A DNA stretch of 64,000 bases from Eledone cirrhosa (lineage: Eukaryota), in the NCBI GenBank assembly GCA_964016885.1, contig OZ024742.1, positions 102,548,001 to 102,612,000 of the forward strand. The letters are read 5' to 3'. This document shows, piece after piece, positions 12,100 through 63,614 of the stretch. Under the pieces are notes generated by a model. The model saw only the letters and a list, made by a program, of their open reading frames with translations. It searched no databases and had not been told where the DNA came from. Made by a program: the position numbers and the translations under genes. How positions within the stretch are numbered: position 1 is the first letter of the stretch; each line of letters starts with the position of its first letter.

Positions 12100-13097
12100 T
12101 TGTGGTAGTGGTGGTGGTGGTGGTGGTGGTGGTGGTGGTTGTGGTGGTGGTGGTGGTGGTGGTGGTGGTGGTGGTGGTGGTGATAGTGGTGGTGGTGGTG
12201 GTGGTGGTGGTAGTGGTGGTGGTGGTGGTAGTGGTGGTGGTGGTGGTGGTGGTGGTGGTGGTGGTGGTGGTGGTGGTGGTGGTGGTGGTGATGGTAGTGG
12301 TGGTGATGGTAGTGGTGGTGGTGGTGGTGGTGGTGGTAGTGGTGGTGATGGTGGTGGTGGTGGTGGTGGTAGTGGTGGTGATGGTGGTGATGGTAGTGGT
12401 GGTGGTGGTGATGGTGGTGGTGGTGATTGTGGTGATGGTGGTGGTGGTGATGGTGGTGACGGTGATGGTGGTGATGGTGGTGGTGATGGTAGTGATGGTG
12501 GTGGTGGTGATGGTGGTGATGGTGGTGGTGGTGGTGGTGGTGGTGATGGTAGTGATGGTGGTGGTGGTGATGGTGGTGATGGTGGTGGTGGTGGTGGTGA
12601 TGGTAGTGATGGTGATGGTAGTGATGGTGGTGGTGGTGATGGTGGTGATGGTGGTGGTGGTGGTGGTGGTGGTGATGGTAGTGATGGTGGTGGTGGTGAT
12701 GGTGGTGATGGTGGTGGTGGTGGTGGTGGTGATGGTAGTGATGGTGGTGGTGGTGATGGTGGTGATGGTGGTGGTGGTGGTGGTGGTGGTGATGGTAGTG
12801 ATGGTGATGGTAGTGATGGTGGTGGTGGTGATGGTGGTGATGGTGGTGGTGGTGGTGGTGGTGGTGATGGTAGTGATGGTGGTGGTGGTGATGGTGGTGG
12901 TGGTGGTGGTGGTGATGGTAGTGATGGTGATGGTAGTGATGGTGGTGGTGGTGATGGTGGTTATGGTGGTGGTGGTGGTGGTGGTGGTGATGGTAGTGAT
13001 GGTGGTGGTGGTGATGGTGGTGATGGTGGTGGTGGTGGTGGTGGTGGTGATGGTAGTGATGGTGGTGGTGGTGGTGGTGATGGTAGTGATGGTGATG
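12100..13097. repeat. (GGT)n array with GAT/AGT higher-order units
   Basis: Recurring GATGGTAGTGATGGTGGTGGTGGT. Confidence 0.95.
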
Positions 13098-13144
13098 AGT
13101 GTAGGAACAGTTGTGATGGAGTGAGATATAGTTGGGATAGGTTT

Positions 13145-13556
13145 GATGATTAGCAGTATCTGTAGAGCGTCGGACACCTGCTTTGCAACATTGAGTACGG
13201 CCCTTTACGTTCTGAGTTCTAGTCCGGCCGAGGTTAGATTTTCCTTTCATCCTTACGGGGTCGATAAAATAAAGTACCAGTAACGCACTGGGGTGGATTT
13301 AATCCACTTTCCCCCTCCCCTTCAAATGGCCTTGTGCCTAAAGTAGAAACAATTATATGTACGAAGGGCGGTGGATTGGCAGAATCGGTGGAGGGTCGGA
13401 CGCCATGCTTTGCAGCATAGAGTTACGTCCCTTTACGGTCTGAGTTCAAATCCCGCCGAGGTTAACTTTGCCTTTCATCCTTACGGGGTCGATAAAATAA
13501 GTACCAGTAATGCACTGAGGTAATTGCTGGTCTTGTGCCAAAAGTAGAAACAATTA
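13145..13556 (+). mobile_element. Two tandem SINE copies
   Basis: 13145-13355 and 13367-13556. Confidence 0.85.
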
Positions 13557-13560
13557 TATG

Positions 13561-13744
13561 TACGAGGGTAGGCTGAAGTTTATAGGCTGACTATAAAGGA
13601 GTGATGCTAGAGCTGTGAAATTTTGCTTGCATTAATTTCAACTCTTCTTATTAATAACTGCATTGTTTCTTTCCAGCGACTATGTTGAAAAATAGTATCT
13701 TGGTCATCCTATGAACTTTTCAGCCTATGATCTTTTCAACCCTC

Positions 13745-13747
<3 letters not shown>
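13561..13747. mobile_element. Mariner-derived MITE
   Basis: TA-CGAGGGT...ACCCTCG termini. Interior matches 5352-5435 and 38729-38880. Confidence 0.8.
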
Positions 13748-13820
<73 letters not shown>

Positions 13821-13824
<4 letters not shown>

Positions 13825-13997
13825 GTAGAACACTGGAAGGTAATATCCGTAGTGGTAGAGCACTCAGTCCAAGGGACGAGTTAGGTAGAAGTGATTACAC
13901 AAGTTAGTTCACCATACCGAGAACAATTGTTTCACCTTAGCCGATCTTCAGCTCGGGATTCCCGAGCTGAAGATCCACTAAGGTGAAACAATTGTTC
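13821..13997 (-). mobile_element. Penelope-like terminal repeat family B, with hammerhead (13917-13956) and inverted partial copy
   Basis: CCGAG-CTGAAGA-N11-GAAA-CAATTG-TT-CTCGG with a palindromic stem III. Abuts (TA)n. Confidence 0.7.
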
Positions 13998-14316
13998 TGG
14001 AGTCTTATTTTAAAAAAAAAGATATATATTTATTTGGTTCCTTTACCGGTTTCGCAGTTCTGCTTTTCAAAAGTAGAGTTGAGATGGAGGGTCTGTGGTT
14101 TTTCTCACAGATGTGAGAAAAACCACAGACCCTCCTCACAGACCCTCCTCACAGACCCTCCTCACAGATGTGAGAAAAACCGGTAAAGGAACCAAATAAA
14201 TATATATATTTAAAAAAAAATAAGACTCCAGTTGCATTTTCGATTTCATCTTTTTTTCTTTATACTTTCACTCGTGTAGGACACCTCGGTTATTTTTCAT
14301 TTTGTAAAAAAACCAC

Positions 14317-14323
<7 letters not shown>
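13997..14323. mobile_element. Fold-back family C copy
   Basis: Inverted arms around CTCACAGATGTGAG. Same sequence as 30068-30556 and 40498-40771. Confidence 0.7.
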
Positions 14324-14409
<86 letters not shown>

Positions 14410-14937
14410 TAATATTATTCAAAATATTAATAAATGAGAAATATCATAACCATGGTGTTATATATATATATATATGGAGAGAGAGGGGGGGGGATCAGGA
14501 TTATATATACCAGTTTTAAACTAGCGAGACCATAATTCAGTAGAGTACTCGATAGTAGAGAGTGTAAATATAGTAGAGAATCAGGGCCCGACGGCTGAGC
14601 TCTTGCCGTTTGACAGTAAATTCAAGAGTCTGGAACGTGTTGTCGAAACAGCAAGAGTTCAACTGTCGGGCATATATATATATATATACATGTTTCTGTC
14701 TCTCTGCCTCCCCCCTCCCTATCTCTCTCTCTGTAGAGGTAACCGAGTGTGTGTAAATGTGTATATAAATTTACACATTGAGAATTTAGACATCTAAACA
14801 TACTCAATTTTAATATACACTTGTGTGTGTGTGTACATACATGTATACAGACACACACTCACACATACAGACACACACTCACACATACAGACAGACACAC
14901 ACACACACACACATGCACACACACACACGCACACACG

Positions 14938-14987
<50 letters not shown>

Positions 14988-15298
14988 CACACGCGCGCGC
15001 CCCATTTGGGATTGCAGCAGTCCTACAACTGATTCTACTGGGATATTACGACGGGAAATGAAATATAAGGGAACTGGATGGAAGGGGACTCTTTACCCTT
15101 CTTTCTTTCTCCTCTTTCTCTCTCCTTATCTCACTCTCTCTCTTACCTACATCTCTGTCTCTCTCTCTCTATCTTTCTCAATCTATTAATCTATTATCTC
15201 TCTCTCTATCTCTTTCCCTCTCTCTCCTCCTCTCTCTTTCTCACTCTCTCTCGCTATTTCTCTCCCTCTCTCTCCCTCTCTTTCCTCCGCCACCTCTG

Positions 15299-15356
<58 letters not shown>

Positions 15357-15484
15357 ATTCGATCTATCTATCTATCTATCTACCTACCTATCTACCTATC
15401 CCTCGCTCACTCTCTTTTTCTTTTCATCACCATCTCTGTCTCTCTCCCCCTCTCTCCCTCGTTACACTTCCTTCTCAGTCTCTT

Positions 15485-15573
<89 letters not shown>

Positions 15574-15699
15574 TTCTATCAATCTATTTATCACTCTCTC
15601 CCTCTCCCTCACCCTCTCTTCCGGTCGGACGTACTATTATTACAAAAGCATCATCATCATCATCATTAAGCTCAATATCATTATCGTCTTCATTATCAT

Positions 15700-16560
15700 C
15701 ATAGTGGTGGTGGTGGTGGTGGTGGTGGTGTTGATGGTGTTGGAGGTGGTGGTGGTGGTGGTGGTGGTGGCGGTGGCGGTGGTGGTGGTGGTGGTGGTGG
15801 TGGTGGTGGTGGTGATGGTGGTGGTGGTATGGTGGTGATGATGTTCATCATCATCATCGTCATCATCATCGTCGTCTTTGTCGTCGTCATCATCATTATA
15901 GTTATTATCTCTGTTTTCGTTATCATCATCATCATCATTAACGTCACCATTATTGTCAGCGTCACCTTACTCTCCCTCCTCCCCCTACTCCACATCACCA
16001 TCATTACCACCACCACTACCACCACCACTACCACCACCACCACTACCACCACCACCACTATCACCACCACCATCACTACCACCACCACTATCACCACCAC
16101 CACCACCACCACCACCACCATACCACCACCACCACCACTATCACCACCACCATCACTATCACCACTACCACCACTACCACCACCACCGATACCACCACCA
16201 CTATCACCACCACCACCACCACCACCATACCACCACCACCACCACTACCACCACCACCACTATCACCACCACCATCACTACCACCACCACTATCACCACC
16301 ACCATCACTATCACCACCACCACCACTACCACCACCACCGATACCACCACCACTATCACCACCACCACCACCACCACCACCACCATACCACCACCACCAC
16401 CACTATCACCACCACCATCACTATCACCACCACTACCACCACCATACCACCACCACCACCACTACCACCACCACCAACATCATCACCACCATACCACCAC
16501 CAACACCACCACCACCACCACAATCATCATCATCATCATCGCTATAATCAACACTATCAA
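15700..16560. repeat. (GGT)n, (ATC)n, (ACC)n compound array
   Basis: Read directly. The strand polarity flips within the array. Confidence 0.9.
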
Positions 16561-16749
16561 CACTATCAGCCCTCTCTTCCCCTGCCCCTAGCCACACCCT
16601 ATCGTGTAAGGGATCTTCTATTCAGTAGTGTTGTCCAGGGAACCCCACCATGCCCGGGAACAAAGCTGGGAAGGTCATAGATGGAATGTCTTTGATCATT
16701 CGGCAGCTGGAACTAAACAGCATTAACAAATACAATAACAAATAATCTT

Positions 16750-17219
16750 CTTGTTGTTGTTGTAGTTGTTATTGTAGTTGTTGTTGTTGCTGTTGCTCTT
16801 GTTGTTGTTGTTGTTGTTGTTGTTGTTGCTTTTGTTGTTGTTGTTTTGTTGTAGTTGTTGTTGTTGTTGTAGTTGTTGTTGTAGTTGTTATTGTTGTTGT
16901 TGTTTTGTTGTAGTTGTTGTTGTAGTTGTTATTGTTGTTGTTGCTCTTGTTGTTGTTGTTGTTGTTGTAGTTGTTGTTGCTCTTGTTGTTGTTGTTGTTG
17001 TTGTTGTAGTTGTTGTTGTTGTTGTTGTTGTTCTTGTTGTTGTTGTTGTTGTTGTAGTTGTTATTGTTGTTGTTGCTCTTGTTGTTGTTGTTGTTGTTGC
17101 TGTAGTTGTTGTTGTTGTTGTAGTTGTTATTGTTGTTGTTGTAGTTGTTATTGTAGTTGTTGTTGTTGCTGTTGCTCTTGTTGTTGTTGCTGTAGTAGTT
17201 GTTGTTGTTGCTGTTGCTC

Positions 17220-17257
<38 letters not shown>

Positions 17258-17372
17258 GCTTTTGTTGTTGTTGTCGTCGTTGTAGTTGTTGTTGTTGTTG
17301 TAGTTGTTGTTGTTGTTGTTGTTGTTGTTGCTGTTGCTTTTGTTGTTGTTGTTGTTGTTGCTGCTGTTGCTT

Positions 17373-17404
<32 letters not shown>

Positions 17405-17603
17405 GCTGTTGTTGTTGTTGTTGTTGTTGTTGTTGCTGCTGTTGCTTTTGTTGTTGTTGTTGTAGTTGTTGTTGTTGTTGTTGTTGTTGCTTTTGTTGTT
17501 GTTGTTGTTGTTGTTGCTGCTGCTGTTGCTTTTGTTGTTGTTACTGTTGTTGCTGTAGTTGTTATTGTTGTTGTTGTTGTTGCTGCTGCTGCTGGTGTTG
17601 CTT

Positions 17604-17656
<53 letters not shown>

Positions 17657-17732
17657 ATTGTTGTTGTTGTTGTTATTGTGGTTGTTGTTACTGTTGTTGC
17701 TGTAGTTGTTATTGTTGTTGTTGTTGCTGTAG

Positions 17733-17767
<35 letters not shown>

Positions 17768-18080
17768 GCTGCTGCTGTATTTGTTATTGTTATTGTTGTT
17801 GTTGCTGCTGCTTTTGTTGCCATAGTTGTTTTGTTGTTGTTGTTGTTACTGTTGCTGTTATTGTTGTTACTGCTTTTGTCGTCGTTGTTGTCAATGTTGT
17901 TGTAATTGTTGTTATTGCTGTTGTTGTTGATATTATTATTACTATTGTAGTTGTTATTGCTGTCGTTCCTGTTATTATAGTTATTGTTGTTGTTGTTGCT
18001 GTAGTTGTTACTATTGTTGTTATTGTTGCTGTTGCTGTTATTATTGTTGTTGCTGTTGCTGTAGATGTTGCTGTTGTAGT
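16750..18080. repeat. (GTT)n array
   Basis: Read directly. Confidence 0.95.
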
Positions 18081-18305
18081 TTAGCTCTTTACGAGCCCCC
18101 ATTATACCGACCCCTGATTAATGACCTTCCAGTCGTGGCTATCCCAACTACTATATCGGAGGACATTCATTTTGCTATTACAGTAAATTGTGATTTGGTG
18201 ACGATTCTGCTGCTATTTCTAGCAGATGAAGTGATCACATAAAGGCTCTCCCCATGGTGGTAGTGGTGGTGGTGAGGGTAATAATGAAACTGGTGGGGTG
18301 GCATT

Positions 18306-18367
<62 letters not shown>

Positions 18368-19404
18368 TTGTTTATTGTTGTTTAGCCCCAGGTCAATATT
18401 CATTGAGTAAACCTATGCTCAAACGTAAAACGTGTTCTAACCGATTTTTTCAAGGGCGTTAGATGTAGTGGTGGTGGTGGTGGTGGTAGTGGTGGTGGTG
18501 TTGGTGACGGTGGCAGTGGTGGTGATAGTTATGGTGGTGGTGGTAGTGGTAGTTGTAGTGGTGGTGGTGGTAGTGGTAGTTGTAGTGGTGGTGGTAGTGG
18601 TGGTGGTAGTGGTGACGGTGGCAGTGGTGGTGATAGTTATGGTGGTGGTGGTAGTGGTAGTTGTAGTGGTGGTGGTAGTGGTAGTGGTGGTGGTAGGTTT
18701 ACATTATGTAATGTGTCCTTTAGTTATGACGGTAGGGCGTGGTTTGAGGGAGATTTCACTGATACTTTCTAGCAGATCAAGATGCCTTATAGGGGCTCCC
18801 TCGTTAGTACTGGTTATTGTAGTGTTGCTGGTGGTGGTGTTGGTAATGATGGTGGTGATGGTGGTGGTGATGGTGATGGTGGTGGTATAGGTAGTGCTGA
18901 TGGTGGTGGTAGTGGTAGTGGTAATGGTGGTGGTGGTAGTTGTGGTGGTGGTACGGGTGATGATAGTAGTGGTGGTGGTGATGGTGATGGTAGTAGTGGT
19001 GCTAGTGGTGATGGTGGTAGTGATGGTGGTGGTAGTGGTGATGGTGGTGGTGGTGATGATAGTAGTGGTGGTGGTGATGGTGATGGTAGTAGTGGTGGTG
19101 GTGGTGGTGATGGTAGTAGTGGTGGTAGTGGTGATGGTGGTGGTGATGCTGGTGGTGGTGGTGGTAGTGGTGATGGTGGTGTTGATAGTGGTGATGATAG
19201 TAGTGGTGGTGGTGATGGTGATGGTAGTAGTGGTGGTGGTGGTGGTGATGGTGCTGGTGGTGCTGGTGGTGATGGTAGTAGTGGTGGTGGTGATGGTGAT
19301 GTTAGTAGTGGTGGTGGTAGTGGTGAAGGTGTTTGTTGTGATGATAGTGGTAGTAGTGGTATTGGTGGTGGTGGTGGTGGTTGTGGTGGTGGTTGTGGTA
19401 ATGG

Positions 19405-19435
<31 letters not shown>

Positions 19436-20710
19436 GGTGGTGGTGGTGGTAGTAATGGTGGTGGTGGTGGTGGTGTTTGTTCAGTCCCAGGCCAATCTCT
19501 ATCGAACCGACCTATAATGAAAGGCGTCTCGACCGAGACCATCCCGACATTTTCCAAATGACAGAGAACCCAAAACCTCAATATTGAACGGGCCGTTTGT
19601 CTGCTATTTCAAGCAGGCCGAGAAACCACCTAGAGGTCTTTTGATTTGCCCAGTGTTTGCGGTTTGTTATTTGTGATAGTAATAGGGGCGGGGAGGGTAA
19701 TGAAAGAGCGAAAGTGAGAGATGGGGGCTAAGGTGGGGGTGGGGAAGTGGGGGATAGAGGGATGACACTAGCAGAGAAGGCAGTAACCATGACAACGTAC
19801 ATCACAGACCCCTCCCCTTCGCGGCCCACACACTTACTCCGTAATGGTCAGGTCGTTACGACTTGTAACAAAAAGTGGAACTGGGAGGGTAGGAAATAAT
19901 CGCTGTTGATGTTGGTATTGATGATGATGGTGATGATGGTGTTGATGGTATTGGTGGTGATGGTGGTGATGAGGATGATGGTGGTGGTAGTGGTGGTGAT
20001 AATAGTGTTATTGATGATGGTAGTGATGGTGATGGTGTTGATGATGATGATGGTAGTGATGGTGTTGGTGATGGTGGTGATGATGGTGGTGGTAGTGGTG
20101 GTGATAATAGTGTTATTGATGATGGTAGTGATGGTGATGGTGGTGGTGGTGGTGGTGGTAATGATGGTGACGTTTATGATGATGGTGATAATTATGATGC
20201 TACTGATGGTAATGGTGGTGGTAGTTTTCTAATCGAACTGTTATAATGGTGGTCGTGACATTTTTGTTATTGTTGTTGTTTTGTCCCAGGTCAGACCAGA
20301 TCAAGTAGACCTATCTATGATCAAAGACATTCCAGCCGTGACAAATTCGTTTTATTTTCAGACTTAGTTTAATCTCAGAATATATAATCTAATAAGTCCT
20401 TAACTTTTTTCAAGACAATGAAAGTGTGATATGAGGGAGATTTGGCTGCTATTTCTAACAGGCTTAACGACCATATTCACGTTGATGTTGATGTTGTTAT
20501 TGTTGTTTGTTTAGTCCTTCGCCCTCACCCCTCTCCCATATCTAGGTCAATTTATTATGAGAGACATTCCAACCATGACCATCCAATCTTTTTATACAGT
20601 ATCTAAAGTAAATAATATTACGTGTTCCTCTCTTTTTAAAACAGTAGTTGTTTGAGAAGGATTTAGCTGTTGTTTCTAAAAGGTTGATCCATCACATATA
20701 CTGTCTCGTT
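18080..20710 (-). mobile_element. Several decayed copies of an (AAC)n-tailed interspersed repeat
   Basis: CCCAGGTCA..GACCTAT..CATTCCAGCC..GGGAGATTTGGCTGCTATTTCTAAC recurs at ~18080-18255, 18380-18805 (split by GGT), 19480-19640, 20270-20480 and 20510-20710. Also at 33620-33820 and, inverted, at 16600-16740. Confidence 0.6.
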
Positions 20711-20723
20711 AGTTAGTGATAAT

Positions 20724-21040
20724 AATGGTTTCTGATTTAGACACAAGGCCAACAATTTTTTGTGGGGGTGGAGGGGAAAGCTAGTTTAATCACACTAGTT
20801 CATTACTGGTACTTTATTTTAACGACCCCACTAGAGATGAAAGCTAACCTCGGCTGAATTTAAACTCAGATAATGGTTCCTGATTTAGGCACAAGGCTAA
20901 TAGCTTTGGGGGAGGGGAAAGTCGATTAAATCGACCTCAGTTCATTACTGGTACTTTATTTTACCGACCCCATAAGGATGAAAGAAAAGGTAACCACGGC
21001 GGGACTTGAACTCAAAACGTAATGGGACGTTACCGATACT
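20724..21040 (-). mobile_element. Two tandem SINE copies
   Basis: 20724-20870 (partial) and 20871-21040. Confidence 0.8.
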
Positions 21041-21049
21041 GTAATAATA

Positions 21050-24600
<3,551 letters not shown>

Positions 24601-24871
24601 CAACTACAATGTATGTAATACTGAGGTCGATAGCTATCCATTGTTGACCTGTATTTCTTATGTCAGACGCTATGTCAACACACACGTGCACGCACACACA
24701 GACGCACAGATGCACATACAAACACGCATACACACACACTCACACGCATAAGTATTCACATACACGCACCCTCTCAAACAAAGGAGAAAGTAAATATTGA
24801 ATAAGCACACTCACATACACACATACATACACATTCATATATACATACATACAAACATACATATATATTTA

Positions 24872-32435: not shown

Positions 32436-32504
32436 TGAATTTTGACGGTTCTTTAAAAAGCATTGGATAGTTTAATAATGCACAGAATGTATGCCTGTAT
32501 GTAA

Positions 32505-32883
32505 GGGTGGAAGAACTCATAAGAGTGAACGGCCATCCGAAAGTGTGTAAATATGTATATACACATGTACCGTGTGGTTAAACCACTGAGAGTGAAGGAC
32601 CCCTAGCCTTTGTCAGGGCATTCTTCTAGTGGAAGGCAACTCAGGAAACTGGGATAACTCAGATATAAAAGCTGCGGCTCAGTAGTTACCGATGACGTTG
32701 ATCTTTTCTTCTTTTCGGCTTATAGCTACTGTCGCTCAGAGAGTGGGATTGGCTCAGTGCACAGTCTCTCCTCACTTTATAAAATATCTTCATGCACAGG
32801 CATTGCACGATAGAATTAATTAATAATTATTAATAAGGGTATATCGTGAAATGGCCATACTCGATAACGAGGGGGCAGCCATC
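32505..32883 (+). mobile_element. RTE-derived non-autonomous element subfamily 2, 5'-truncated
   Basis: Near-identical to 48130-48510. Confidence 0.75.
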
Positions 32884-33039
32884 ATATATGTATGTATGGT
32901 ACCGTAACTCCTGAGGAGTCGTAGGGGTGCCATATTGACATACGGCGGAACCCATCTCTTCTCCGAGCATGAATACAGTAGATTTCTTCCAGAGAAAGAT
33001 AGAGAGAGTGAGAAAGAGATATAGAGGAAGAATCAACCC

Positions 33040-36901: not shown

Positions 36902-37737
36902 GTGTAGAGTCTGTCAACCTCTCCACTTCCCTCTTTCTTTGGTTACTCAATAATCCTTACCCTTTCCCTCCTTTCCTCTCATTTATAGTCTTTTCCAATA
37001 CTACTTTATTTTTGACTAAATATTAAACTAAATATTAAACTGTTTATTCTTTTTATCTAATTTTTATCTAATTAACTTATATCTTTGAATTTTAACAATG
37101 TATTTTAGCTGGAATTTTTTGAAATTTTGGCTTTGTGATTATATTTTCAAAATTAATTGAAAAATCATATGCTGTATCTTTCATGAGTAACAGGGTAACG
37201 AAAGTATTAATTGGCAGTCATTCCCAACAAGGCGGCAAGTATCCAGCAATTCAGCAGGTACCAAGCAACCACATAATTTGTGCGAAATTACTAAACAAGA
37301 AAACAGAAAGAAAAATCTAATGAAACATTATCATTCAAATTAGAAAATAATCAACAGAAGATTTAACCTTATCGTTATCATATTTCTAATGAAAGGCATT
37401 GTATTCGGGGCTGGATTGGGACGTTTTGAAACATTAAACACTAAAATATTATAGTGTCCCTCCCCATATATAAAGTGCGCAATGTGTAGCGACATGCAAA
37501 AGTACATGAACTCCAACCTCAGCCGACTATTCCCAGTGAATGTTTTGGTTGCCGACTCTGTCCAAGACATTTTAGATCATTGGCTGGGCTAAAAAGCCAC
37601 ATTCGATCGCAGCGCAGTTAGTTGCTATCGCGCGTGTGTGTGTGTGTGTGTGTAGATATGTTTATGTGTGTGCGTGTGTGTGTATATATATATGTATATG
37701 TATATTATTATTGTTGTTGTCGTTGTTATTATTATTG

Positions 37738-37774
<37 letters not shown>

Positions 37775-37814
37775 ATATGTGTGTATGTATATATATATGT
37801 GTATATATGTATAT

Positions 37815-37887
<73 letters not shown>

Positions 37888-37936
37888 TTTATTTCCTTTT
37901 TTATTTATTTATTAATATTTTTTTTTCTCCTCGTGC

Positions 37937-37972
37937 AATGGCCATACTCGATAACGAGGGGGCAGCCATCAT
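37937..37972 (+). mobile_element. Terminal 3' stub of the RTE-derived element
   Basis: AATGGCCATACTCGATAACGAGGGGGCAGCCATCAT is identical to the end of the 32505-32883 copy. Confidence 0.65.
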
Positions 37973-43044: not shown

Positions 43045-43535
43045 GTGTATGTATGTATGTATGTATGTATGTATGTATGTATGTATGTATGTATGTATGT
43101 ATGTATGTATGTATGTATGTATGTTTGTATGTATGTATGTATGTATGTATGTATGCATGTATGTATGTATGTATGTATGTATGCATGTATGTATGTATGT
43201 ATGTATGTATGTATGTATGCATGTATGTATGTATGTATGTATGTATGCATGTATGTATGTATGTATGCATGTATGCATGTATGTATGTATGTATGTATGT
43301 ATGTATGCATGTATGTATGTATGCATGTATGCATGTATGTATGTATGCATGTATGTATGCATGTATGTGTGTATGCATGTATGTATGTATGTATGTATGT
43401 ATGTATGTATGTATGTATGCATGTATGTATGTATGTATGTATGTATGTATGTATGTATGTATGTATGCATGTATGTATGTATGTATGTATGCATGTATGT
43501 ATGTATGTATGTATGTATGTATGTATGTATGTATG
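43045..43535. repeat. (TATG)n microsatellite
   Basis: Read directly. Confidence 0.95.
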
Positions 43536-45682: not shown

Positions 45683-45847
45683 GTTCTTCTGGTTTCATTA
45701 CTTTATTATGTTTTACCAATAAAGAGAAAGTCGGTTTCTAACATAGACAAGACGCTTTCATTGGAATTTAGACAACATCAACTAGGTAAATATGTCTGCA
45801 TAGATGTTATTGTATGTGTGGATCTGTATGGTTTGAGTTACACGTGC

Positions 45848-45850
<3 letters not shown>
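45683..45850 (-). mobile_element. R4/Dong family B, 3' UTR-only copy
   Basis: Diverged duplicate of 45928-46110 lying between TATG repeats. Confidence 0.8.
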
Positions 45851-45878
<28 letters not shown>

Positions 45879-45927
45879 TGTATGTATGTATGTATGTATG
45901 TATGTATGTATGTATGTATGTATGTAT

Positions 45928-46583
45928 GTTCTTCTGGTTTTATAATTTCACAAAGTTTTACCAATAGAGAGAGAGTCGGTTTCTAACATAGACACAAGAC
46001 TCTCTCATTGGAATTTACACAACATCAACTAGGTAGATATGTATGTATGCATGCATGTGTAGATATGGATGTTATTGTATGTGTGGATGTGTATGTTTTG
46101 AGTTGTATGTGTGCATGTGTATATGCTTTGTATCTGTACATGTGTATATGCAGTTATTAGATGCAACATTTTTGGAATGTTTTACATATTTTTACTGTTC
46201 CATTAATGGATTGTACTTGTAATTTCCTAACTAGTTGTGTTCTTTCTGTTCCTGTGAAGCCTAGCTTCTCAATATTTGTATTGAGGCAGTTACTAACATA
46301 TCCCAGTGCCCCAATAATCACAGGCATAAATCTGAAGGTGTAATCAGGGTGGAGTATCTGCAGATTTCTCATCAGTTCTGCATAAATATTCTCCTTTTCA
46401 CTAATCTTTGATATTATATTGGCATCTGCTGGGCAGCTAATTTCCACTACTGTGCATGTTTTCTTCTCCCTGTCCCATATCATAATATCTGGTCTGTTAT
46501 GCCTGCATTTTATTGGGGTTTTTACTGGAACATTCCACCAGTACTCTTTCATATTATGTACATGGATGTCTTCCACATTGTTG
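45928..46583 (-). mobile_element. R4/Dong family B, 5'-truncated copy (RLE domain + 3' UTR)
   Basis: Translation KEYWWNVPVKT..HNRPDIMIWD..VVEISCP..KENIY..PVIIGALG is homologous to but diverged from family A. Flanked by (TATG)n. Confidence 0.9.
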
Positions 46584-46616
46584 TATGTATGTATGTATGT
46601 ATGTATGAATGTATGT

Positions 46617-46937
46617 ATGATGTTGACTTGTTCTTCTTTTTGGTAAATATCATCTCGGTTAAGAGAGTGGGACTGGCTTTGTGCAGTGCCTTTGCTCACT
46701 ATAAAAGCTTCACGGCACAGGCATTGCTTTATATCTGGAGATCTCTCTGCACTTGTTGTCACATGGTACCATGGGCCCTGCACTGTGTCAATAATTGTCA
46801 CAAGTGTAGTGTTTGTACCAGAGTTTTCAAGTCGCTGGCTGGACTAAAAAGTCACACTCGTTCAGCGCATCGGTAGGGGTTCTCCTACATGGATATAAAG
46901 TAGTGGCCGTACTCGAAAACGAGTTGGCAGCCACCAT
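46617..46937 (+). mobile_element. RTE-derived non-autonomous element, 5'-truncated
   Basis: Reverse complement of 49477-49800. C2H2 finger codons at 46796-46876, followed by an (ATGT)n tail. Confidence 0.75.
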
Positions 46938-46962
46938 GTATGTATGTATGTATGTATGTATG

Positions 46963-47816
46963 TTTTCTCTTTCTCTTAATTTCGAGTATATTTTTTTGAC
47001 CGGCCACCTTCCTGGTGGCAAGGTTGTAAAAGAAAAGAAATTGTCATCCCTTGAATCGCAAGAATGTTTTGCATATTTTGAAGGTGCCAGCTATCGCAGC
47101 CATTTGTAGACTATGAATTAGGGAGCTGCGCTTTTTGTCCGCAAATCCAAGTTCGGTCATACTTTGGTCCAAGCGGGTTGGTATATAACCCGTAGCACCA
47201 ATAATGATGGGTATGAAGCTAAAGGTGTATCTTGGATACTGGATTTGTAAGCTCCTCATCAATGGTCCGTAGATGTCCTCCTTCTCCTGTATTTTTCTGA
47301 CAACGTTTACATCAAGTGGGCAGCTGATCTCCACAACAGAACACGTTTTCAATGTGTGGTCCCAAACTACAATATCAGGCCGGTTGTGCTTTAATTTGGT
47401 GGCAGTTTTTATTTTCAGGTTCCACCAGTATTCCTTAGTGCCATCTGTCTCAATATATTCTTCCTCGTTTGTTGTTAATTTTGTTTTCCGAAGTGCGTTC
47501 CAGATAGTTCTAGCTATCCCATCGTGTCTCATGGGGAGGTAGTAGCGAGATGACATTCTTTCGCAGCTGGCAACAATGTGGCTTACATCCTCGATCTTTG
47601 TTTTACATAGCCTACATTTATTGTCAGCTGCTGGCCCTCCTCTTTTGTGCAGCAGATATTTGGTAGGGAGTTCTTGTTCCTGTATTGCATAGAGATATCC
47701 CTCAAGGTGTGATGTCATAAACTTGTCGGAACTCCATGCCAGGCTTTTTGAGTGGTTTATCCCCTCTATGGTCTGTGTTTTACGCCTCAAGTATCCATGC
47801 ACAACTTTCTCTGTAA
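46963..47816 (-). mobile_element. R4/Dong family A, 5'-truncated copy (CCHC + RLE + 3' UTR)
   Basis: The 252-aa ORF 47044..47802 is nearly identical to the C-terminus of the long copy. Flanked by (TATG)n on both sides. Confidence 0.93.
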
Positions 47817-47982
47817 TGTATGTATGTATGTATGTATGTATGTATGTATGTATGTATGCAAGTATGTCTGTACGAATGCATACATGTATGTATGTATGTA
47901 TGTATGTATGTATGTATGTATGTATGTATGTATGAATTTATGTATGTATTATGTATTAAGTATTATGTATGTATTATGTTAT

Positions 47983-48510
47983 GTCGGGTCACACTTGAGT
48001 GCTACTGGTAACATGTAACCCAGTGCAACATGTCGCATGCCCGGGTCGTCGGCGACTAAACCGGAAACCCCACCAAGTTTGAGGAGGGGGATTTTGGACA
48101 CCCTGCAGGACAAAAAACAAAACCTGACAAAGGGCGGAAGAACTCATAAGAGTCAACGGCCATCCAAAAGTGTGTAAATATGTATATACACATGTACCAC
48201 GCGGTTAAACCACTGGGAGTGAAGGACCCCTAGTCTTTATCAGGGCATTCTTCTAGGAGAAGGCAACTCAGGAAACTGGGATAACTCCGATATAAAAGCT
48301 GCGGCTCAGTAGTTACCGATGATGTTGATCTTTTCTTCTTTTCGGGTTATAGCTACTGTCGCTCAGAGAGTGGGATTGGCTCAGTGCACAGTCTTTCCTC
48401 ACTTTAAAAAATACCTTCACGCACAAGCATTGCTTGATAGAATTAACTAATAATTATTAATAATGGTATATCGTGAAATGACCATACTCGATAACGAGGG
48501 GGCAGCCATC
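47983..48510 (+). mobile_element. RTE-derived non-autonomous element, subfamily 2
   Basis: Same 5' module (GCTACTGGTAACATGTAACCCAGT..GGCGACTAAACCGG). Ends CTCGATAACGAGGGGGCAGCCATC plus TATG. Confidence 0.72.
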
Positions 48511-48554
48511 ATGTATTATGTATGTCTGTATGTATGTATATATGTATGTATTAT

Positions 48555-49113
48555 GTCAGGTCGCTTTTCAGCGCTACTGGTTACATGTAACCCAGTACAA
48601 CCTGTACATGGTCGGTCGTCGGCGACTAAACCGGCAACCCCATCAAGCTTGCTTAGTGAGGTGGGTGATTTTGGACACCCTGTGGAATGGAAAACAAAAA
48701 CCGGTCAAAAGACGGAGGAACTCAGGAGAGTCAACGGCCATCCAATAAAGTTTTTTTTTTTTTTGTGGAGTGAGAGACTCCTACTCTTCATTAAAACATT
48801 TCTCTGGGAGAAGGTCACTCTGATATAAAACCTGTCACTTCGTTTGCATCCAACGATGTACACCAGTTCTTCTCTTTTGGTAAATGCATTCGATGTTGAG
48901 AGAGTGGGATTGGCTTCGTGCAAATCCTTTCCTCATTTAAAAAAGCTTCAAGCCCAGGCATCGCTTTTTTTTTTTACGATGCATGACATTTTTTTACGAT
49001 GCATGGCATTGTTGGCCATAGGCAAGTCCCTAGCAGGACAAAAAAGCCACGTCTGTGATACTCAAGCTTAAGTATCAAGCGATGGCATTATTCGAAATCG
49101 CGTTGCAGCCATC
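48555..49113 (+). mobile_element. RTE-derived non-autonomous element, subfamily 3
   Basis: Same 5' module, a KSLAGQKSH finger remnant, a GCAGCCATC end and a (TATG)n tail. Confidence 0.7.
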
Positions 49114-49188
49114 CTGTATGTATGTATGTATGTATGTATGTATGTATGTATGTATGTATGTATGTATGTATGTATGTATGTATGTATG

Positions 49189-49476
49189 TTATTATCTCTT
49201 TCTCTTAATTTCGAGTATATTTTTGACCGGCCACCTTCCTGGTGGCAAGGTTGTAAAAGAAAAGGAATTGTCATCCCTTGAATCGCAAGAATGTTTTGCA
49301 AATTTTGAAGGTGCCAGCTATCGCAGCCATTTGTAGACTATGAATTAGGGAGCTGCGCTCTTTGTCCGCAAATCCAAGTTCAGTCATACTTTGGTCCAAG
49401 CGGGTTGGTATATAACCCGTAGCTCCAATAATGATGGGTATGAAGCTAAAGGTGTATCTTGGATACTGGATTTGTA
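49189..49476 (-). mobile_element. R4/Dong family A, short 3' copy
   Basis: Near-identical to 50730-51015. The 3' end lies in the (TATG)n tract. Confidence 0.9.
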
Positions 49477-50087
49477 CATGGTGGCTGCCAACTCGTTTTC
49501 GAGTACGGCCACTACTTTATATCCATGTAGGAGAACCCCTACTGATGCGCTGAACGAGTGTGACTTTTTAGTCCAGCCAGCGACTTGAAAACTCTGGTAC
49601 AAACACTACACTTGTGACAATTATTGACACATAGTGCTGGACCCATGGTACCATGTGACGACAAGTGCAGAGAGATCTCCAGATATAAAGCAATGCCTGT
49701 GCCGTGAAGCTTTTATAGTGGGCAAAGGCACTGCACAAAGCCAGTCCCACTCTCTTAACCAAGATGATATTTACCAAAAAGAAGAACAAGTCAACATCAT
49801 TGGATACCATCAGGGTTGCAGGTGTTATATCAGAGTTTTCCTTCTCCTAGAATTCTGCCTTGACAAAGGCTAAGGGGTCATCTCTCCCGGTGATTTTGGA
49901 TGGGCATTGACTCTTAAGAGCTCCTTTGCCCTTTGACAGGTTTGGTTTTTAGTCCTGCAGGATGTCTAAAGTCACCCTCCTCACCAAGCAACCTTGGTGG
50001 GGTTGCCAGTTTAGTCGCCAACGACACGAACATGAGACAGGTTGTACTGGGATACATGTTACCAGTAGCACCAACTGGTGACCTGAC
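49477..50087 (-). mobile_element. RTE-derived bipartite non-autonomous retroelement, apparently full length (~610 bp)
   Basis: 5' part is shared with 47983 and 48555. 3' part encodes CSVCTRVFKSLAGLKSHTRSAH (RTE-type C-terminal C2H2 finger), then a CTCG-N4-CGAG stem-loop and GGCAGCCACCATG. Confidence 0.75.
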
Positions 50088-50570
50088 ATACACACATACA
50101 TACATACATACATACATACATACATACATACATACATACATACATACATACATACATGTACATACATCCATACATACATACATGTACATACATGTACATA
50201 CATGTACATACATACATACATACATACATACATGTACATACATGTACAGGATTTGTTCATACATACATACATATGTATGTATGTATGTACATGTATGTAT
50301 GTACATGTATGTACATGTATGTTCATGTATGTACATGTATGTACATGTATGTACATGTACATACATGTACATACATACATGTACATACATACATACATAC
50401 ATACATACATACATACATACATACATACATACATACATACATACATGTATATACATGTACATACATGTACATACATGTACATACATGTACATACATACAT
50501 ACATACATACATACATACATACATACATACATACATGTACATACATACATACATGTACAGGATTTGTACA

Positions 50571-50628
<58 letters not shown>

Positions 50629-50729
50629 CAAATCCTGTACATGTATGTATGTATGTACATGTATGTACATGTATGTACATGTATGTACATGTATGTACAA
50701 GTATGTACATGTATGTATGTACATGTATG

Positions 50730-53604
50730 TTTTCTCTTTCTCTTAATTTTGAGTATATTTTTTGACCGGCCACCTGCCTGGTGGCAAGGTTGTAAAAGAA
50801 AAGAAATTGTCATCCCTTGAATCGCAAGAATGTTTTGCAAATTTTGAAGGTGCCAGCTATCGCAGCCATTTGTAGACTATGAATTAGGGAGCTGCGCTTT
50901 TTGTCCGCAAATCCAAGTTCAGTCATACTTTGGTCCAAGCGGGTTGGTTTATAACCCGTAGCACCAATAATGATGGGTATGAAGCTAAAGGTGTATCTTG
51001 GATACTGGATTTGTAAACTCCTCATCAATGGTCCGTAGATGTCCTCCTTCACCTGTATTTTTCTGACAACGTTTACATCAAGTGGGCAGCTGATCTCCAC
51101 AACAGAACACGTTTTCAATGTGTGGTCCCAAACTACAATATCAGGCCGGTTGTGCTTTAATTTGGTGACAGTTTTTATTTTCAGGTTCCACCAGTATTCC
51201 TTAGTGCCATCTGTCTCAATATATTCTTCCTCGTTTGTTGTTAATTTTGTTTTCCGAAGTGCGTTCCAGATGGTTCTAGCTATCCCATCGTGTCTCATGG
51301 GGAGGTAGTAGCGAGATGACATTCTTTCGCAGCTGGCAACAATGTGGCTTAAATCCTCGATCTTTGTTTTACATAGCCTACATTTATTGTCAGCTGCTGG
51401 CCCTCCTCTTTTGTGCAGCAGATATTTGGTAGGGAGTTCTTGTTCCTGTATTGCATAGAGATATCCCTCAAGGTGTGATGTCATAAACTTGTCGGAACTC
51501 CATGCCAGGCTTTTTGAGTGGTTTATCCCCTCTATGGTCTGTGTTTTACGCCTCAAGTATCCATGCACAACTTTTTCTGTAAATTGGTCAATTTTTTTTT
51601 CTTGTTTGAACATTGAATAGGATCTTCGGATTTCTCTGGGTGAGAGATTTATATCGGGCTTTATTCCATATCTCTCCTCCAGATCAGTCGCTATTCTAAT
51701 GATATTTCTTTTTTCATAGTCATAAACCTGGGCAAGATGGTTGCCAACCTTTTTCCTCTGTTGAAGGTGTTGCTTCAGTGTCACTATCCGGGTCTCATAT
51801 GTTGTTAATATTGATTTTAGACCCCGGCCACCTTCCTTGCGTGAGAAGTATAGCCTATCCACATCACCATTGATGTTAAAGTTCCCAGTAACACTGAGAA
51901 GTTTTCGAGTTCTAACATCCATCTCACTTAGTTCTTGCAATGACCAGTTCAGTAGGCCAAATGTTGGCGTTAGAATTGGCACAGCATAAGTATTGTGGGC
52001 AATGTATTTGTTGTATGCTGACAGTTCTGATGACCATATTTTCTTTACTCTTCTGAGGTATTCAGTTCTGGTTCTCTCCTTATTTATGGGTCCATCATAT
52101 CTGACATTCTCATCCTGTCCAAGATATCTGTAGTTGTCACCTGACTGCAGAGGTTGTATTGTCAGGCCGTTCATCTCTAGATTTCTAGAGGAGGGCACAG
52201 CTCTTCCACGTTTTACTGCCAAATATGCACACTTGGACTCACCAAATTTCATTTTGATGTCGGTTGAAAATTGTGTAATGAGGTCCAATTGTTTCTTGAT
52301 GTCATTGATATTTGGCCCATACAACTTCAGGTCATCAACAAAGAAAAGATGGGAGATACTTCTGGTCCCACTTCTTTGTCGACCTTGTTTCCTGAGTAGG
52401 TAAGATAGTGGATTCAGTGAGAGAACGAAGAGAAGCACCGACAAGCTATCACCCTGAAAGATGCCCTTCTGGTAATGTATCTTATCAGTCCTAACCTGCT
52501 CCTTCTCACCCCTAAGGATCAAACTGGTGTACCAGTTCTTGGTCAGGCGTTCAACAGCAGCTACCAATGGTTGTGGGACTTTAGCTAACTGTAAAGCCTT
52601 AACAATCCACCCATGAGGTACACTATCAAATGCTTTTTGATAGTCCAGCCACACGACAGTCATGTTTCTGCGATTCTTTGTTGTTTTTTCCTGAATCATT
52701 TTGTTAGTTAGTAGGTGATCTATGCAACCCCACACCTCCCTCTTTCCACCAGCTTGCTCAGGTGTTATGATGTTGTTGGTAGCACAGTGATCCTGTAAGA
52801 ACAGGTTAAGGCACCCAGTATATAATTTATACATGATGTTTTGGCAGGCAATTGGGCGGTAATTTTTAGCAAGGGTGGTTTGGCTATTTTTGGGAATGAG
52901 GAGAGTAGAGGCAGTTGATAACCATCTGGGCAGTTCTTGTGTGCCCTTAATGGTTTCTGTAAACAGCCGTATGAGATCTTGCCGATAGAAAGTGAAATTC
53001 TTCAACCAGTATCCTGTAATGAGGTCTGGGCCTGGCGATTTCCTATTCGACATTTTCTGTAGAGCTGTTTCCAGTATTGACCCATCTATGTCATATTGTT
53101 TTGTCTGGACATGTTGGCAGTAGTCCTGTTCCAGTTCTTTTAGCCAATTAGCTTGTCTGTTGAATCCGTCATCCGTTTCCCATACAGATCTCCAGTAGCT
53201 CTCAACCTGTTCTTTTGAAGGGGTGTCATTTACAGAGATTGAGCTTTTGCCACCGAAGCTGCGATAAACTGATTTAGGATCTCTGGCAAACAATCTATTT
53301 AGCACTTGTCGTTTATGTGCTGTTGACTTATATTTTAGTCTTTCTGTTGTAGCTGTGAGTTGTTGTTTCAACTGGTGTAATTTGGAGTTCAAAGTTTTAA
53401 ATTTGGTATCTCCAAATCGTCTCTCTAACTTTTTCTTTAGGTCTTCCTGGTGTTGTGTGAAGTTGCTCTCTATGTTGCATTTCATAACGACTGCGATGTG
53501 TGAGATACTTCGTCTCAGGGACAAAATTTTGGTTTTTAAATTTCGCATCCACGCTGGTTCAGGCTTTCTGTTTGTATCTTGATTGCGTGGTTTTAGATGT
53601 GTGT

Positions 53605-53606
<2 letters not shown>
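50730..53606 (-). mobile_element. R4/Dong family A, long copy inserted in (TACA)n
   Basis: ORF followed by an ~80-nt 3' UTR with a GCCACC-N5-GGTGGC hairpin. Both ends run directly into TACA-type repeats. Confidence 0.93.
50810..53606 (-). CDS. R4/Dong-clade non-LTR retrotransposon polyprotein (RT + CCHC + restriction-like endonuclease), 5'-truncated, no internal stops
   Basis: RT motifs NYRPIAC, EQAGG, WLDYQKAFDSVPH, GIFQGDSLS, LFFVDDLKLY, YRYLG and RLYFSRKEGGRGL. Zinc knuckle CRLC..H..C, RHD motif, and RPDIVVWD..VVEISCP..KEDIY. The track's N-terminus (53607-53785) is read-through into the microsatellite and the adjacent repeat. Confidence 0.95.
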
Positions 53607-53636
<30 letters not shown>

Positions 53637-53755
53637 TGTATGTATGTATGTATGTATGTATGTATGTATGTATGTATGTATGTATGTATGTATATATGTA
53701 TGTATGTACATGCATGTACATGTATGTATGTACATGTATGTATGTATGTATATAT

Positions 53756-53884
53756 GTTGGTGCTACTGGTAACAACCTGTCCCATGGTCGGGTCGTTGGT
53801 GACTAAAATGGCAACCCCACCAAGGTTTCTTGGTGAGGAGGGTGACTTTAGACATCCTGTAGGACTAAAATAAAACCTGTCAAT
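53756..53884 (+). mobile_element. 5' fragment of the RTE-derived non-autonomous element
   Basis: Matches the reverse complement of 49935-50075. Flanked by TATG repeats. Confidence 0.7.
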
Positions 53885-54399
53885 GTACGTATGTATGTAT
53901 GTATGTTTGTTTGTATGTATGTGTGCATGTAATTATGTATGCATGTGTATATGTAGGTATTAGTTATGTGTGTGTATGTGTGTGTGTATGTATGTGTGTA
54001 TATGTATGTGTGTGTTTATGTATGTATGTATTTATGTATACATGCATGTCTGTCTGTATGCATGTATGTTTCTATGTAAATGTATGTATGTACGTATGAA
54101 TGGATGGATGTATATATGTATGTAGTTATGTATTATGTATGTTTATATGTATGTATATATGTAATTATGTATGTATGCATGTATGTATTCATGTATATAT
54201 GTTAGGTGAATATGTATGTATGTACGTAGGTAAGTATATATGTATATATATATATATGTATATATATATATAGATATAGATATATATGTAAAAGTTCTAT
54301 TTAAATTGTTGGGATACAACAAGCAAATATTTTTATAACTGATATAAAGCACTCAACAAATAATTGGAGTAAAAATACGATATTAACGATGTTAATACC

Positions 54400-63336: not shown

Positions 63337-63612
63337 CATGATGGCTGCTCCCTCGTTATCGAGTATGGCCATTGCCCGATATAACATTACTAATAATTGT
63401 CAATTAAAGCTATTGTGCAATGCTTGCGCATGAAGATCTTTTTTTTTTAAGTGAGGAAAGACTGTGCACTGAGCCAATCCCACTCCCTGAGCGACAGTAG
63501 CTATAACCCGAAAAGAAGAAAAGGTCAACATCATCGGTAACTACTGAGCCGCAGGTTTTATATCGGAGTTAACCCAGTTTCCTGAGTTACCTTCTCCTAG
63601 AAGAATGCCTTG

Positions 63613-63614
<2 letters not shown>
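63337..63614 (-). mobile_element. RTE-derived non-autonomous element subfamily 2, 5'-truncated
   Basis: Reverse complement of 48240-48510, embedded in (CATA)n. Confidence 0.75.

Follow-up and report, generated by a model that had tools for sequence, protein, structure and literature searches.

Ten retrotransposon insertions lie within 8.2 kb of Eledone cirrhosa DNA (positions 45684-53885 of the window, that is, of the whole stretch of 64,000 nucleotides analyzed), as judged from the sequence together with library annotation. With a probability of about 0.85 this cluster is a nest of ten independent insertions into one TATG/CATA array that is targeted by both retrotransposon clades present. 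It consists of five R4/Dong-type LINE copies from two families and five RTE-derived non-autonomous elements (Table 1). All five R4-type copies are located on the minus strand with the 3' end against a TATG-type array on the plus strand, and TATG-type repeat precedes each of the five RTE-derived elements in the element's own sense. A preliminary description of the region had already counted about ten insertions in TATG-type repeats and noted both arrangements. Its statement that the RTE-derived elements all end in ATGT has to be corrected, as the element terminating at 49116 ends in CCTGT instead of CATGT and the one at approximately 53755-53885 is a 5' fragment without a 3' end. Likewise, the opposite orientation of the two clades applies to four of the five RTE-derived elements only, because the one at 49478-50085 resides on the R4 strand, where array polarity flips locally. 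The tail-to-tail junctions between R4 and RTE ends that had been pointed out are indeed present (46937-46963 and 49116-49190); these two compare with three head-to-head junctions (46572/46617, 47816/47985 and 53610/53755).

Table 1. Elements and arrays of the cluster, in window coordinates.
Feature	Position	Strand	Remarks
R4/Dong-type family A, 3' UTR fragment, older copy	45684..45830	-	5' limit approximate
(TATG)20 target array	45849..45928	+	
R4/Dong-type family A, 5'-truncated; endonuclease C-terminus and 3' UTR	45929..46572	-	P0003 translation
RTE-derived non-autonomous SINEa, 5'-truncated	46617..46937	+	
R4/Dong-type family B, 854 bp, 5'-truncated	46963..47816	-	P0002 translation
TATG-type array, R4 head on one side, RTE head on the other	47819..47980	+	
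RTE-derived bipartite element SINEb, full length	47985..48512	+	5' UTR and last 42 nt common to autonomous RTE
RTE-derived element SINEc, full length	48557..49116	+	Alignment with SINEa and SINEb
(TATG)18 array at tail-to-tail junction	49117..49188	+	
R4/Dong-type family B, 287 bp, 5'-truncated	49190..49476	-	
SINEa, full length, R4 strand; 3' end fused directly to R4 head	49478..50085	-	
CATA/TATG/TACATG array, polarity flips, fold-back centered near 50601	50086..50729	.	Sequence
R4/Dong-type family B, 2.88 kb, 5'-truncated	50730..53610	-	P0001 translation
TATG-type array, R4 5' junction	53607..53754	+	
SINEa 5' fragment without 3' end, head-to-head with R4	53755..53885	+	

The older family A fragment matches one family A copy at 83% and the neighboring copy at 79%. 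This neighbor has copies at 98-100% elsewhere in the genome, and its 3' junction reads GAAGAA followed by CATA. The 5'-truncated SINEa is arranged head-to-head with it and tail-to-tail with the 854-bp family B copy, the last 285 nt of which are 100% identical to dispersed copies. The truncation point of the 287-bp family B copy is also found at another locus (L288), and the 2.88-kb copy, which matches the full-length copy L201 at 99.3%, retains an open frame with reverse transcriptase, CCHC knuckle and restriction-like endonuclease. The 271 RTE-type end motifs covered by a scan include no other place where a SINEa 3' end is fused directly to an R4 head; the three hits all fall here. For the junction at 49476, template jumping between the RNAs of R4 and SINE was weighed as an alternative but is not favored, since the 12-mer at the junction is found again further upstream in the array, which fits a target duplication.

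Identity of the elements

The full-length R4-type copy L201 comprises 4028 bp with a single ORF for a protein of 1169 aa (RVT_1, E=6e-25). Residues C980, C983, H992, C997, R1009-H1010, P1059-D1060, D1081, K1091 and Y1095 are conserved in 73 homologs and represent what we take to be a C-terminal CCHC knuckle and restriction-like endonuclease motifs. Similarity of the protein profile to R2 proteins extends to position 1151, and R2 proteins are the top Foldseek matches. Pfam searches detected no APE family in the protein and had no match at all within residues 1-100, so that, unlike in R2, N-terminal zinc fingers are lacking. In the structure model, the N-terminus forms three helices followed by a disordered linker; the domain at approximately 17-79 is a confident three-helix model with an invariant Trp. 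An Atlas lead to Myb_Rap1 (0.84) stays below trust level, and fold searches with the lone domain gave no clear match. A diverged N-terminal Myb/SANT-like domain has been described for the R4/Dong clade (PMC7998251). Our use of the clade name is a putative assignment from architecture and motifs. Family A copies were located by a genome search with a coding stretch. The C-terminal proteins of families A and B are only about 54% identical, and a third R4 family using (CATA)n is probable.

An autonomous RTE partner was found via a fragment in L022. This element, L194, contains a single ORF of at least 500 aa and no ORF1; the 1181-aa product combines Exo_endo_phos and RVT_1 domains with C-terminal C2H2 fingers, and its architecture suggests a putative placement in the RTE clade. 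Of 20 long-ORF copies, 17 carry the RTE end motif. SINEb agrees with the autonomous RTE at about 90% over 265 nt of the 5' UTR and at 93-95% over the last 42 nt. The RTE-derived elements thus fit the bipartite non-autonomous type, in which part of the 5' UTR and the 3' terminus stem from an autonomous RTE and a long ORF is lacking. Matches to the RTE 5' UTR are weaker for SINEa (68%) and SINEc (78%, part of the UTR) than for SINEb, which makes a different RTE family their likely direct partner; no such family was found. "SINE" serves as a working label only and does not imply a head derived from a Pol III RNA (tRNA, 5S, 7SL).

Insertion sites and flanking repeats

Genome-wide, R4 3' ends are followed by CATA in 1874 of 2094 and 5383 of 6346 cases (85-90%) instead of random flanks, and families A and B share a fixed junction immediately before CATA. 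Since the 5' junctions of both families also lie in (CATA)n, CATA is the target and not a tail. The 5' flanks of family B class as TATG or mixed purine-pyrimidine array in 29 of 31 cases. By comparison, 590 kb taken at regular intervals contained 0.66 (TATG)n runs of at least 16 bp per 10 kb, which together made up about 0.2% of this sample. Among the first 100 family B 3' ends listed, seven neighbor pairs lie less than 10 kb apart (0.62 expected), all of them same-strand. The TATG/CATA target common to both clades, the opposite orientations and the insertion hotspot, all put forward earlier, are supported.

To our knowledge, the RTE clade is not regarded as sequence-specific. In E. cirrhosa, RTE elements occupy arrays of TA, TATG or mixed type, their sense strand being the G-rich one. 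They end at CAT; among 27,108 SINEa ends genome-wide, AT follows in 12,824 (47%) and GTATGTATG in 7,731 (28.5%). A fixed ATGT tail is absent, and the only repeat borne by the elements at this end is an occasional (CAT)n stutter. Other repeats, inside the UTRs of autonomous RTEs, are element-borne. Perfect TATG repeat occupies the 14 nt upstream of 2,021 of 10,860 SINEa 5' ends, and the TATG content of the flanks, which is correlated between the 5' and 3' sides (rho 0.62, 0.44, 0.39), is never higher on the 3' side. The target duplication of about 12 bp begins at the terminal AT and therefore leaves no room for a tail: a non-periodic 12-mer starting there recurs just upstream in 15 of 37 informative copies (permuted mean 2.7, maximum 8) and was not found in 22.

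Enrichment of R4 at RTE tails, which the preliminary description had proposed to test, was not borne out, as R4 adjoins RTE 5' ends as often as 3' ends: its neighbor across the array is an RTE tail in 27 of 87 cases and an RTE head in 18 of 47 (p=0.45). The gap is shorter in tail-to-tail than in head-to-head arrangement (median 21 vs 88 nt), and 101 tail-to-tail junctions within 30 nt exist genome-wide. In all seven assessable short junctions R4 landed beside the RTE 3' end after the RTE insertion, in agreement with the sequence of events supposed before. About 46 of 56 background tracts lack an RTE end on their 5' side, and the 490-bp array at 43048-43535 has no RTE end. RTE 3' ends (9/56, one counted twice) exceed RTE heads (4/58) at background tracts, the 3' ends being easier to detect. 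RTE neighbors are more frequent at R4 sites than at background tracts (p=0.05 on the tail side, p=1e-4 on the head side), and this excess suggests that more than array sequence may matter, for example array length or chromatin.

Origin of the arrays and of the cluster

Probably the strand-asymmetric arrays exist first and both clades insert into them, each in the polarity opposite to the other. The pre-existence of the arrays is concluded from the flanks on both sides and the duplications rather than from an empty site; for the left part of the cluster, public runs, two of which possibly represent the assembly's own sample, yielded neither a spanning contig nor an empty allele, a result that carries no weight in either direction. 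The R4/Dong-type LINE would cut (CATA)n at a fixed phase, its endonuclease nicking the TATG strand, which would prime reverse transcription by analogy with R2-type target-primed reverse transcription. On the same analogy, the APE endonuclease of the RTE would nick the CATA strand, the terminal AU of the RTE RNA likely pairing with the target. RTE-mobilized elements likely favor these purine-pyrimidine arrays as well and enter them in the reverse direction, and the arrays themselves likely arise and lengthen by ordinary slippage and not as RTE tails. As the array would survive either kind of insertion, later copies of both clades could land again in its two halves, in unchanged polarity; each insertion would leave target on both sides, so that nested clusters build and the hotspot persists. 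One SINEa in the cluster (49478-50085) has the wrong polarity, which counts against the shared-target model.

The preliminary description had assumed that RTE tails create the microsatellite later targeted by R4. Such seeding would be in line with the SINEa ends that run directly into GTATGTATG, with the close tail-to-tail junctions and the later arrival of R4 in the short ones, and RTE-made microsatellites are documented in moths (PMC2887409). It is nevertheless largely refuted: 47% of the ends lack a G, the repeat is equally common upstream of the elements, including 15 of 17 SINEa copies chosen for tight tail-to-tail junctions, and head-to-head junctions are as frequent as tail-to-tail ones. 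Furthermore, the repeat of moth RTEs lies between the target-site duplications (PMC2887409), whereas in E. cirrhosa it does not, the duplication starting at the terminal AT. Compatible with a shared target is the tentative idea that R4 itself acts as an amplifier, each insertion adding roughly 40-60 nt of (CATA)n at the 5' junction by a long duplication, by slippage on the target or by upstream repeat carried in the RNA. For family B, 45 copies were compared at both ends (L206 was excluded because its 5' end was mis-placed, and L290/L291 because they are duplicates whose end is rearranged). The median array length is 75 nt on the 5' side against 40 nt on the 3' side (p=0.005), with 80 nt against 20 nt in full-length copies, and both sides summed have a median of 110, more than the length-biased mean of 61 for the background. 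However, the mean array lengths hardly differ (111 vs 105), the same asymmetry results if long arrays are cut close to one end or are preferred as such, and the length of the R4 duplication is unreadable in pure repeat.

Passive accumulation, that is, survival of random insertions in repeat-rich, unconstrained DNA, was proposed for Drosophila Waldo (PMC3812793) and would suit a genome as rich in microsatellites as this one, but is very improbable here. For R4 it is refuted, as 85-90% of thousands of junctions, in copies 98-100% identical to each other, agree in phase and strand; for the RTE elements it conflicts with the sampled DNA, in which 19 of 20 RTE-type ends fall within purine-pyrimidine tracts that make up about 8% of positions. 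Local tandem duplication or misassembly might be suspected from the 97-98% likeness of three family B and two SINEa copies and from the fold-back near 50601. Yet the copies differ in 5' truncation, each is nearer to dispersed copies than to its neighbors, and many other loci show this architecture as well, which makes this origin of the cluster hardly credible; an assembly explanation is conceivable only for the 50086-50729 array.

Relation to known elements and significance

Microsatellite-targeting LINEs are well known. Members of the Dong/R4 clade possess one ORF with reverse transcriptase and C-terminal restriction-like endonuclease, lack an N-terminal zinc finger and insert into microsatellites (PMC7998251, PMC3812793). 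The E. cirrhosa R4 copies share architecture and microsatellite insertion with Bombyx Dong, DongAg, DongBg and ostracod Dong, but the targets reported for Dong are (TAA)n or rDNA, whereas two families use the tetranucleotide (CATA)n here. They are a variant of the known microsatellite-targeting LINEs, and with (CATA)n the range of Dong/R4 targets now includes a tetranucleotide. The elements listed for Octopus vulgaris include active Dong-R4 families (PMC13282606). ACAY microsatellites including ACAT/CATA are targeted by Waldo elements of the R1 clade (WaldoAg1/2, WaldoFs1; PMC3812793); as Waldo relies on an APE and R4 on a restriction-like endonuclease, the shared target would be convergent.

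RTE-clade LINEs carry a microsatellite-rich 3' UTR (PMC9115989), their non-autonomous derivatives combine 5' UTR and 3' end (PMC5786205), and the 3'-end sequence has been proposed as a guide to the insertion site (PMC6007223). Known systems of this design, with a single APE-RT ORF or as bipartite non-autonomous derivatives, are Bov-A, RTESINE1/2, WALLSI3, Ceph-SINEs and octopus RTE-2_OV; the E. cirrhosa elements differ in that the flanking microsatellite is target and not tail, with strong strand polarity. Neither a Dong element in (CATA)n nor an RTE directed to microsatellites turned up in our search, which covered the literature as distinct from Repbase and Dfam.

The finding that repeats next to RTE 3' ends can represent target instead of tail matters for inferring microsatellite origins, and the many intact, near-identical R4 copies are suited to a cleavage assay. 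Transposon hotspots of octopods have been mapped but not explained (PMC13282606); the shared array target provides a sequence-level cause. More speculatively, a Dong lineage may have switched to (CATA)n and lengthened the array with each insertion, while an RTE lineage became microsatellite-directed on the opposite strand. If true, such a polarized, self-renewing sink for both clades would multiply targets and help to explain the microsatellite load and transposon hotspots of octopods.

The insertion cluster in the window

Between 45684 and 53885 the window holds ten insertions, five of them R4/Dong-type LINEs of families A and B and five RTE-derived non-autonomous elements, for which SINEa, SINEb and SINEc serve as working labels. 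Where the two clades meet in this cluster, three junctions are head-to-head (5' ends facing) and two tail-to-tail (3' ends facing).

Insertions in the array cluster of the window
Family	Type	Start	Strand	Remark
A	R4/Dong-type	45684	minus	
A	R4/Dong-type	45929	minus	
SINEa	RTE-derived	46617		
B	R4/Dong-type	46963	minus	
SINEb	RTE-derived	47985		
SINEc	RTE-derived	48557		
B	R4/Dong-type	49190	minus	
SINEa	RTE-derived	49478	minus	
B	R4/Dong-type	50730	minus	
SINEa	RTE-derived	53755		5' fragment

The points of 5' truncation differ between the copies. Aligned over the final 285 nt, the three copies of family B share 97.2-97.9% identity with one another, compared with 100%, 98.2% and 99.3% to their best dispersed matches, and the two long SINEa copies are 97.5% identical to each other and 98.5% and 99.1% identical to copies elsewhere. 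Given these distinct truncations and closer dispersed relatives, sequence comparison identifies the ten elements as independent insertions. Tandem duplication, which the preliminary description had named among the explanations that would speak against its reading, is thus countered, each copy being more like dispersed copies than like its neighbours. The cluster of about ten insertions separated by TATG-type repeat is indeed present, and the observation is real and general throughout the genome.

The window, situated on contig C3, is rich in microsatellites. A TATG-type array at 43048-43535, some 490 bp long, carries no insertion and no adjoining RTE end and represents an unoccupied target. 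Degenerate arrays of trinucleotides (GTG, TTG, GTA, ACC) occur at 12102-24607; they are very long, several exceeding 1 kb. About 25 places within 7475-55936 hold an unrelated repeat, roughly 200 bp in length, which is very common in sampled DNA too. More RTE-derived copies, two SINEb pieces and a 3' fragment of the autonomous RTE, reside at 32503-32885, 37488-37972 and 63338-63613.

R4/Dong-type elements and their CATA junctions

A full-length family B copy comprises 4028 bp with a single open reading frame of 1169 amino acids, which contains reverse transcriptase, CCHC knuckle and restriction-like endonuclease motifs that are kept in 73 homologs. The nearest homolog of this protein with a named source stems from Argonauta hians (65% identity over 60% of the query), which makes an octopod the likely host. 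By E-value, R2 proteins are the best matches of both the family B profile and the predicted structure (mean pLDDT 88), and a second structure aligner ranks LINE-1 ORF2p and R2 near each other. At the N-terminus three helices are predicted to form a domain, and a zinc finger was not found there. For Dong a Myb-like N-terminus is described (PMC7998251); the family B domain may or may not be Myb-like, fold searches with it having produced no clear match.

The R4 junctions are fixed in phase and strand. In genome-wide exact-pattern matches, the 3' end is directly followed by CATA in 1874 of 2094 family B and 5383 of 6346 family A cases, an enrichment of the kind that the preliminary description had proposed to test on genomic 3' junctions. 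As 29 of 31 5' junctions, from full-length copies as well as truncated ones, likewise lie within CATA-type arrays, the repeat is the target and is present on both sides. Truncation points often start with ACA or ATAC, which suggests joining by microhomology. The 5'-side array is longer than the 3'-side array (medians of 75 and 40 nt in 45 pairs; p=0.005); R4 may cut close to one end of the array, or it may add repeat itself. Furthermore, family B ends are clustered: among the first 100 listed, seven neighbour pairs are less than 10 kb apart where 0.62 are expected. All seven are on the same strand, and part of these close pairs could be local duplications. A third R4-like family is probable: at two other loci (L002, L008), just beyond the R4 3' array, its head begins in the same CATA arrays, and its N-terminus carries a similar motif of helices.

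RTE elements and the origin of the repeat

The autonomous RTE, traced via a fragment adjoining an R4 tail at locus L022, is a young LINE for which many open frames close to 1200 amino acids were found; the product of the L194 copy combines APE, reverse transcriptase and C2H2 fingers. Among the matches listed, SINEb shares about 265 nt of the 5' UTR (about 90%) and the last 42 nt (93-95%) with it, while SINEa retains a remnant of the C-terminal finger and a 68% match to the UTR. These elements have the common terminus CAGCCA(C/T)CAT, present in 17 of 20 long-ORF copies and followed in those 17 by G (11), A (5) or a CAT stutter (1). A fourth RTE-derived family with another 3' body and the same end adjoins R4 copies at L009, L017 and L024. 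Because (GT)n, (TA)n and (TAT)n are internal to its UTRs, the autonomous RTE spreads other repeats. In twenty copies (L181-L200) both UTRs hold several length-variable microsatellites, and the distance from stop codon to end is about 200-520 nt. Direct repeats bounding the L194 copy measure 66 bp, far above the 12 bp of SINEa. Same-strand head-to-tail SINEa runs spaced by about 550-750 bp also occur (e.g. 6723437-6725376 on contig C1).

After 27,108 SINEa ends, AT comes next in 12,824 and the TATG 11-mer GTATGTATG in 7,731. Sampled DNA has the latter at about 0.03% of positions, and the TA 11-mer is some 50 times more frequent there; the TATG 11-mer is therefore preferred by SINEa, not required. 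Sampling of the 3.0 Gb genome at fixed intervals, in 59 stretches of 10 kb, gives 11.3 runs of at least 16 bp per 10 kb for (TA)n and 0.66 for (TATG)n. All but one of 20 RTE-type ends in sampled DNA lie inside purine-pyrimidine tracts, with a G-rich sense strand in 15 and a C-rich one in 1.

The preliminary description had proposed that RTE tails create the microsatellite on which R4 then lands. A repeat made by RTE should be positioned between the two target duplications (PMC2887409). RTE junctions lie at CAT and carry a short duplication: of 66 full-length SINEa copies, 37 show at their terminal AT the start of a non-periodic 12-mer. In 15 of these the 12-mer is found again upstream, no more than 26 nt from the 5' end (permuted control: mean 2.7, maximum 8), and in 22 it was not found there; clean duplications measure 12 bp. 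The repeat is as common upstream, with 14 nt of perfect TATG repeat directly before 2,021 of 10,860 SINEa 5' ends. TATG content at the 5' and 3' sides is correlated in three sets of 29-30 copies each, with no 3' excess in any of them. A target made by tails would predict that R4 meets RTE at tails only; 27 of 87 R4 3' ends face an RTE tail across the array, and 18 of 47 family B 5' ends face an RTE head (p=0.45). Among background tracts, 9 of 56 (one counted twice) adjoin an RTE tail and 4 of 58 a head, so most arrays are without a recognisable RTE end, and those occupied by R4 are RTE-enriched on both sides. The claim that the tails generate the repeat is thus not supported.

R4 does land at RTE tails, as had been described. 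Of 101 tail-to-tail junctions no more than 30 nt apart, 20 were fetched, and eight of these contain at most 7 nt of repeat. None of the seven assessable short junctions shows a duplicate of the R4 end upstream of the SINE, and R4 was therefore the second arrival in all seven. A TATG array is also found upstream in 15 of the 17 SINEa copies at the fetched junctions. The reading that TATG/CATA is a target common to both clades is upheld.

Proposed strand choice and relation to known elements

R2-type elements insert by target-primed reverse transcription. By analogy, R4 would nick the TATG strand and RTE the other strand, and nicks on opposite strands would give opposite orientations and nested growth. 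The end of the RNA would pair with the target, as has been proposed for RTE (PMC6007223). The claimed opposite orientations hold in so far as RTE neighbours of wrong polarity are rare (1/87 and 1/47); they fail for the SINEa at 49478, which is orientated in the R4 sense. Within 49476-50729, the 12-mer at the 3' junction of this copy recurs on both strands in the upstream array around a fold-back near 50601, an arrangement that may have arisen by local rearrangement or through an assembly error.

(TAA)n is the target described for Dong in most insects, molluscs and cnidarians (PMC7998251), whereas the R4 families studied here target CATA arrays. One published source lists active families of Dong-R4 and of RTE as well as hotspots, the part of it available giving no target sequence for them (PMC13282606); other literature is found in PMC9115989, PMC5786205, PMC4640811, PMC5035012, PMC12988792, PMC8869645 and PMC13295347. 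Our literature search found neither a (CATA)n-targeting Dong nor target sharing by R4 and RTE, either of which may be recorded in Kojima and Fujiwara 2004, Repbase, Dfam, supplements or the deposited O. vulgaris library, sources outside its coverage. Retrotransposons that target microsatellites are already known and include Waldo on ACAY (PMC3812793); what would be new here is the (CATA)n target and its sharing by R4 and RTE.
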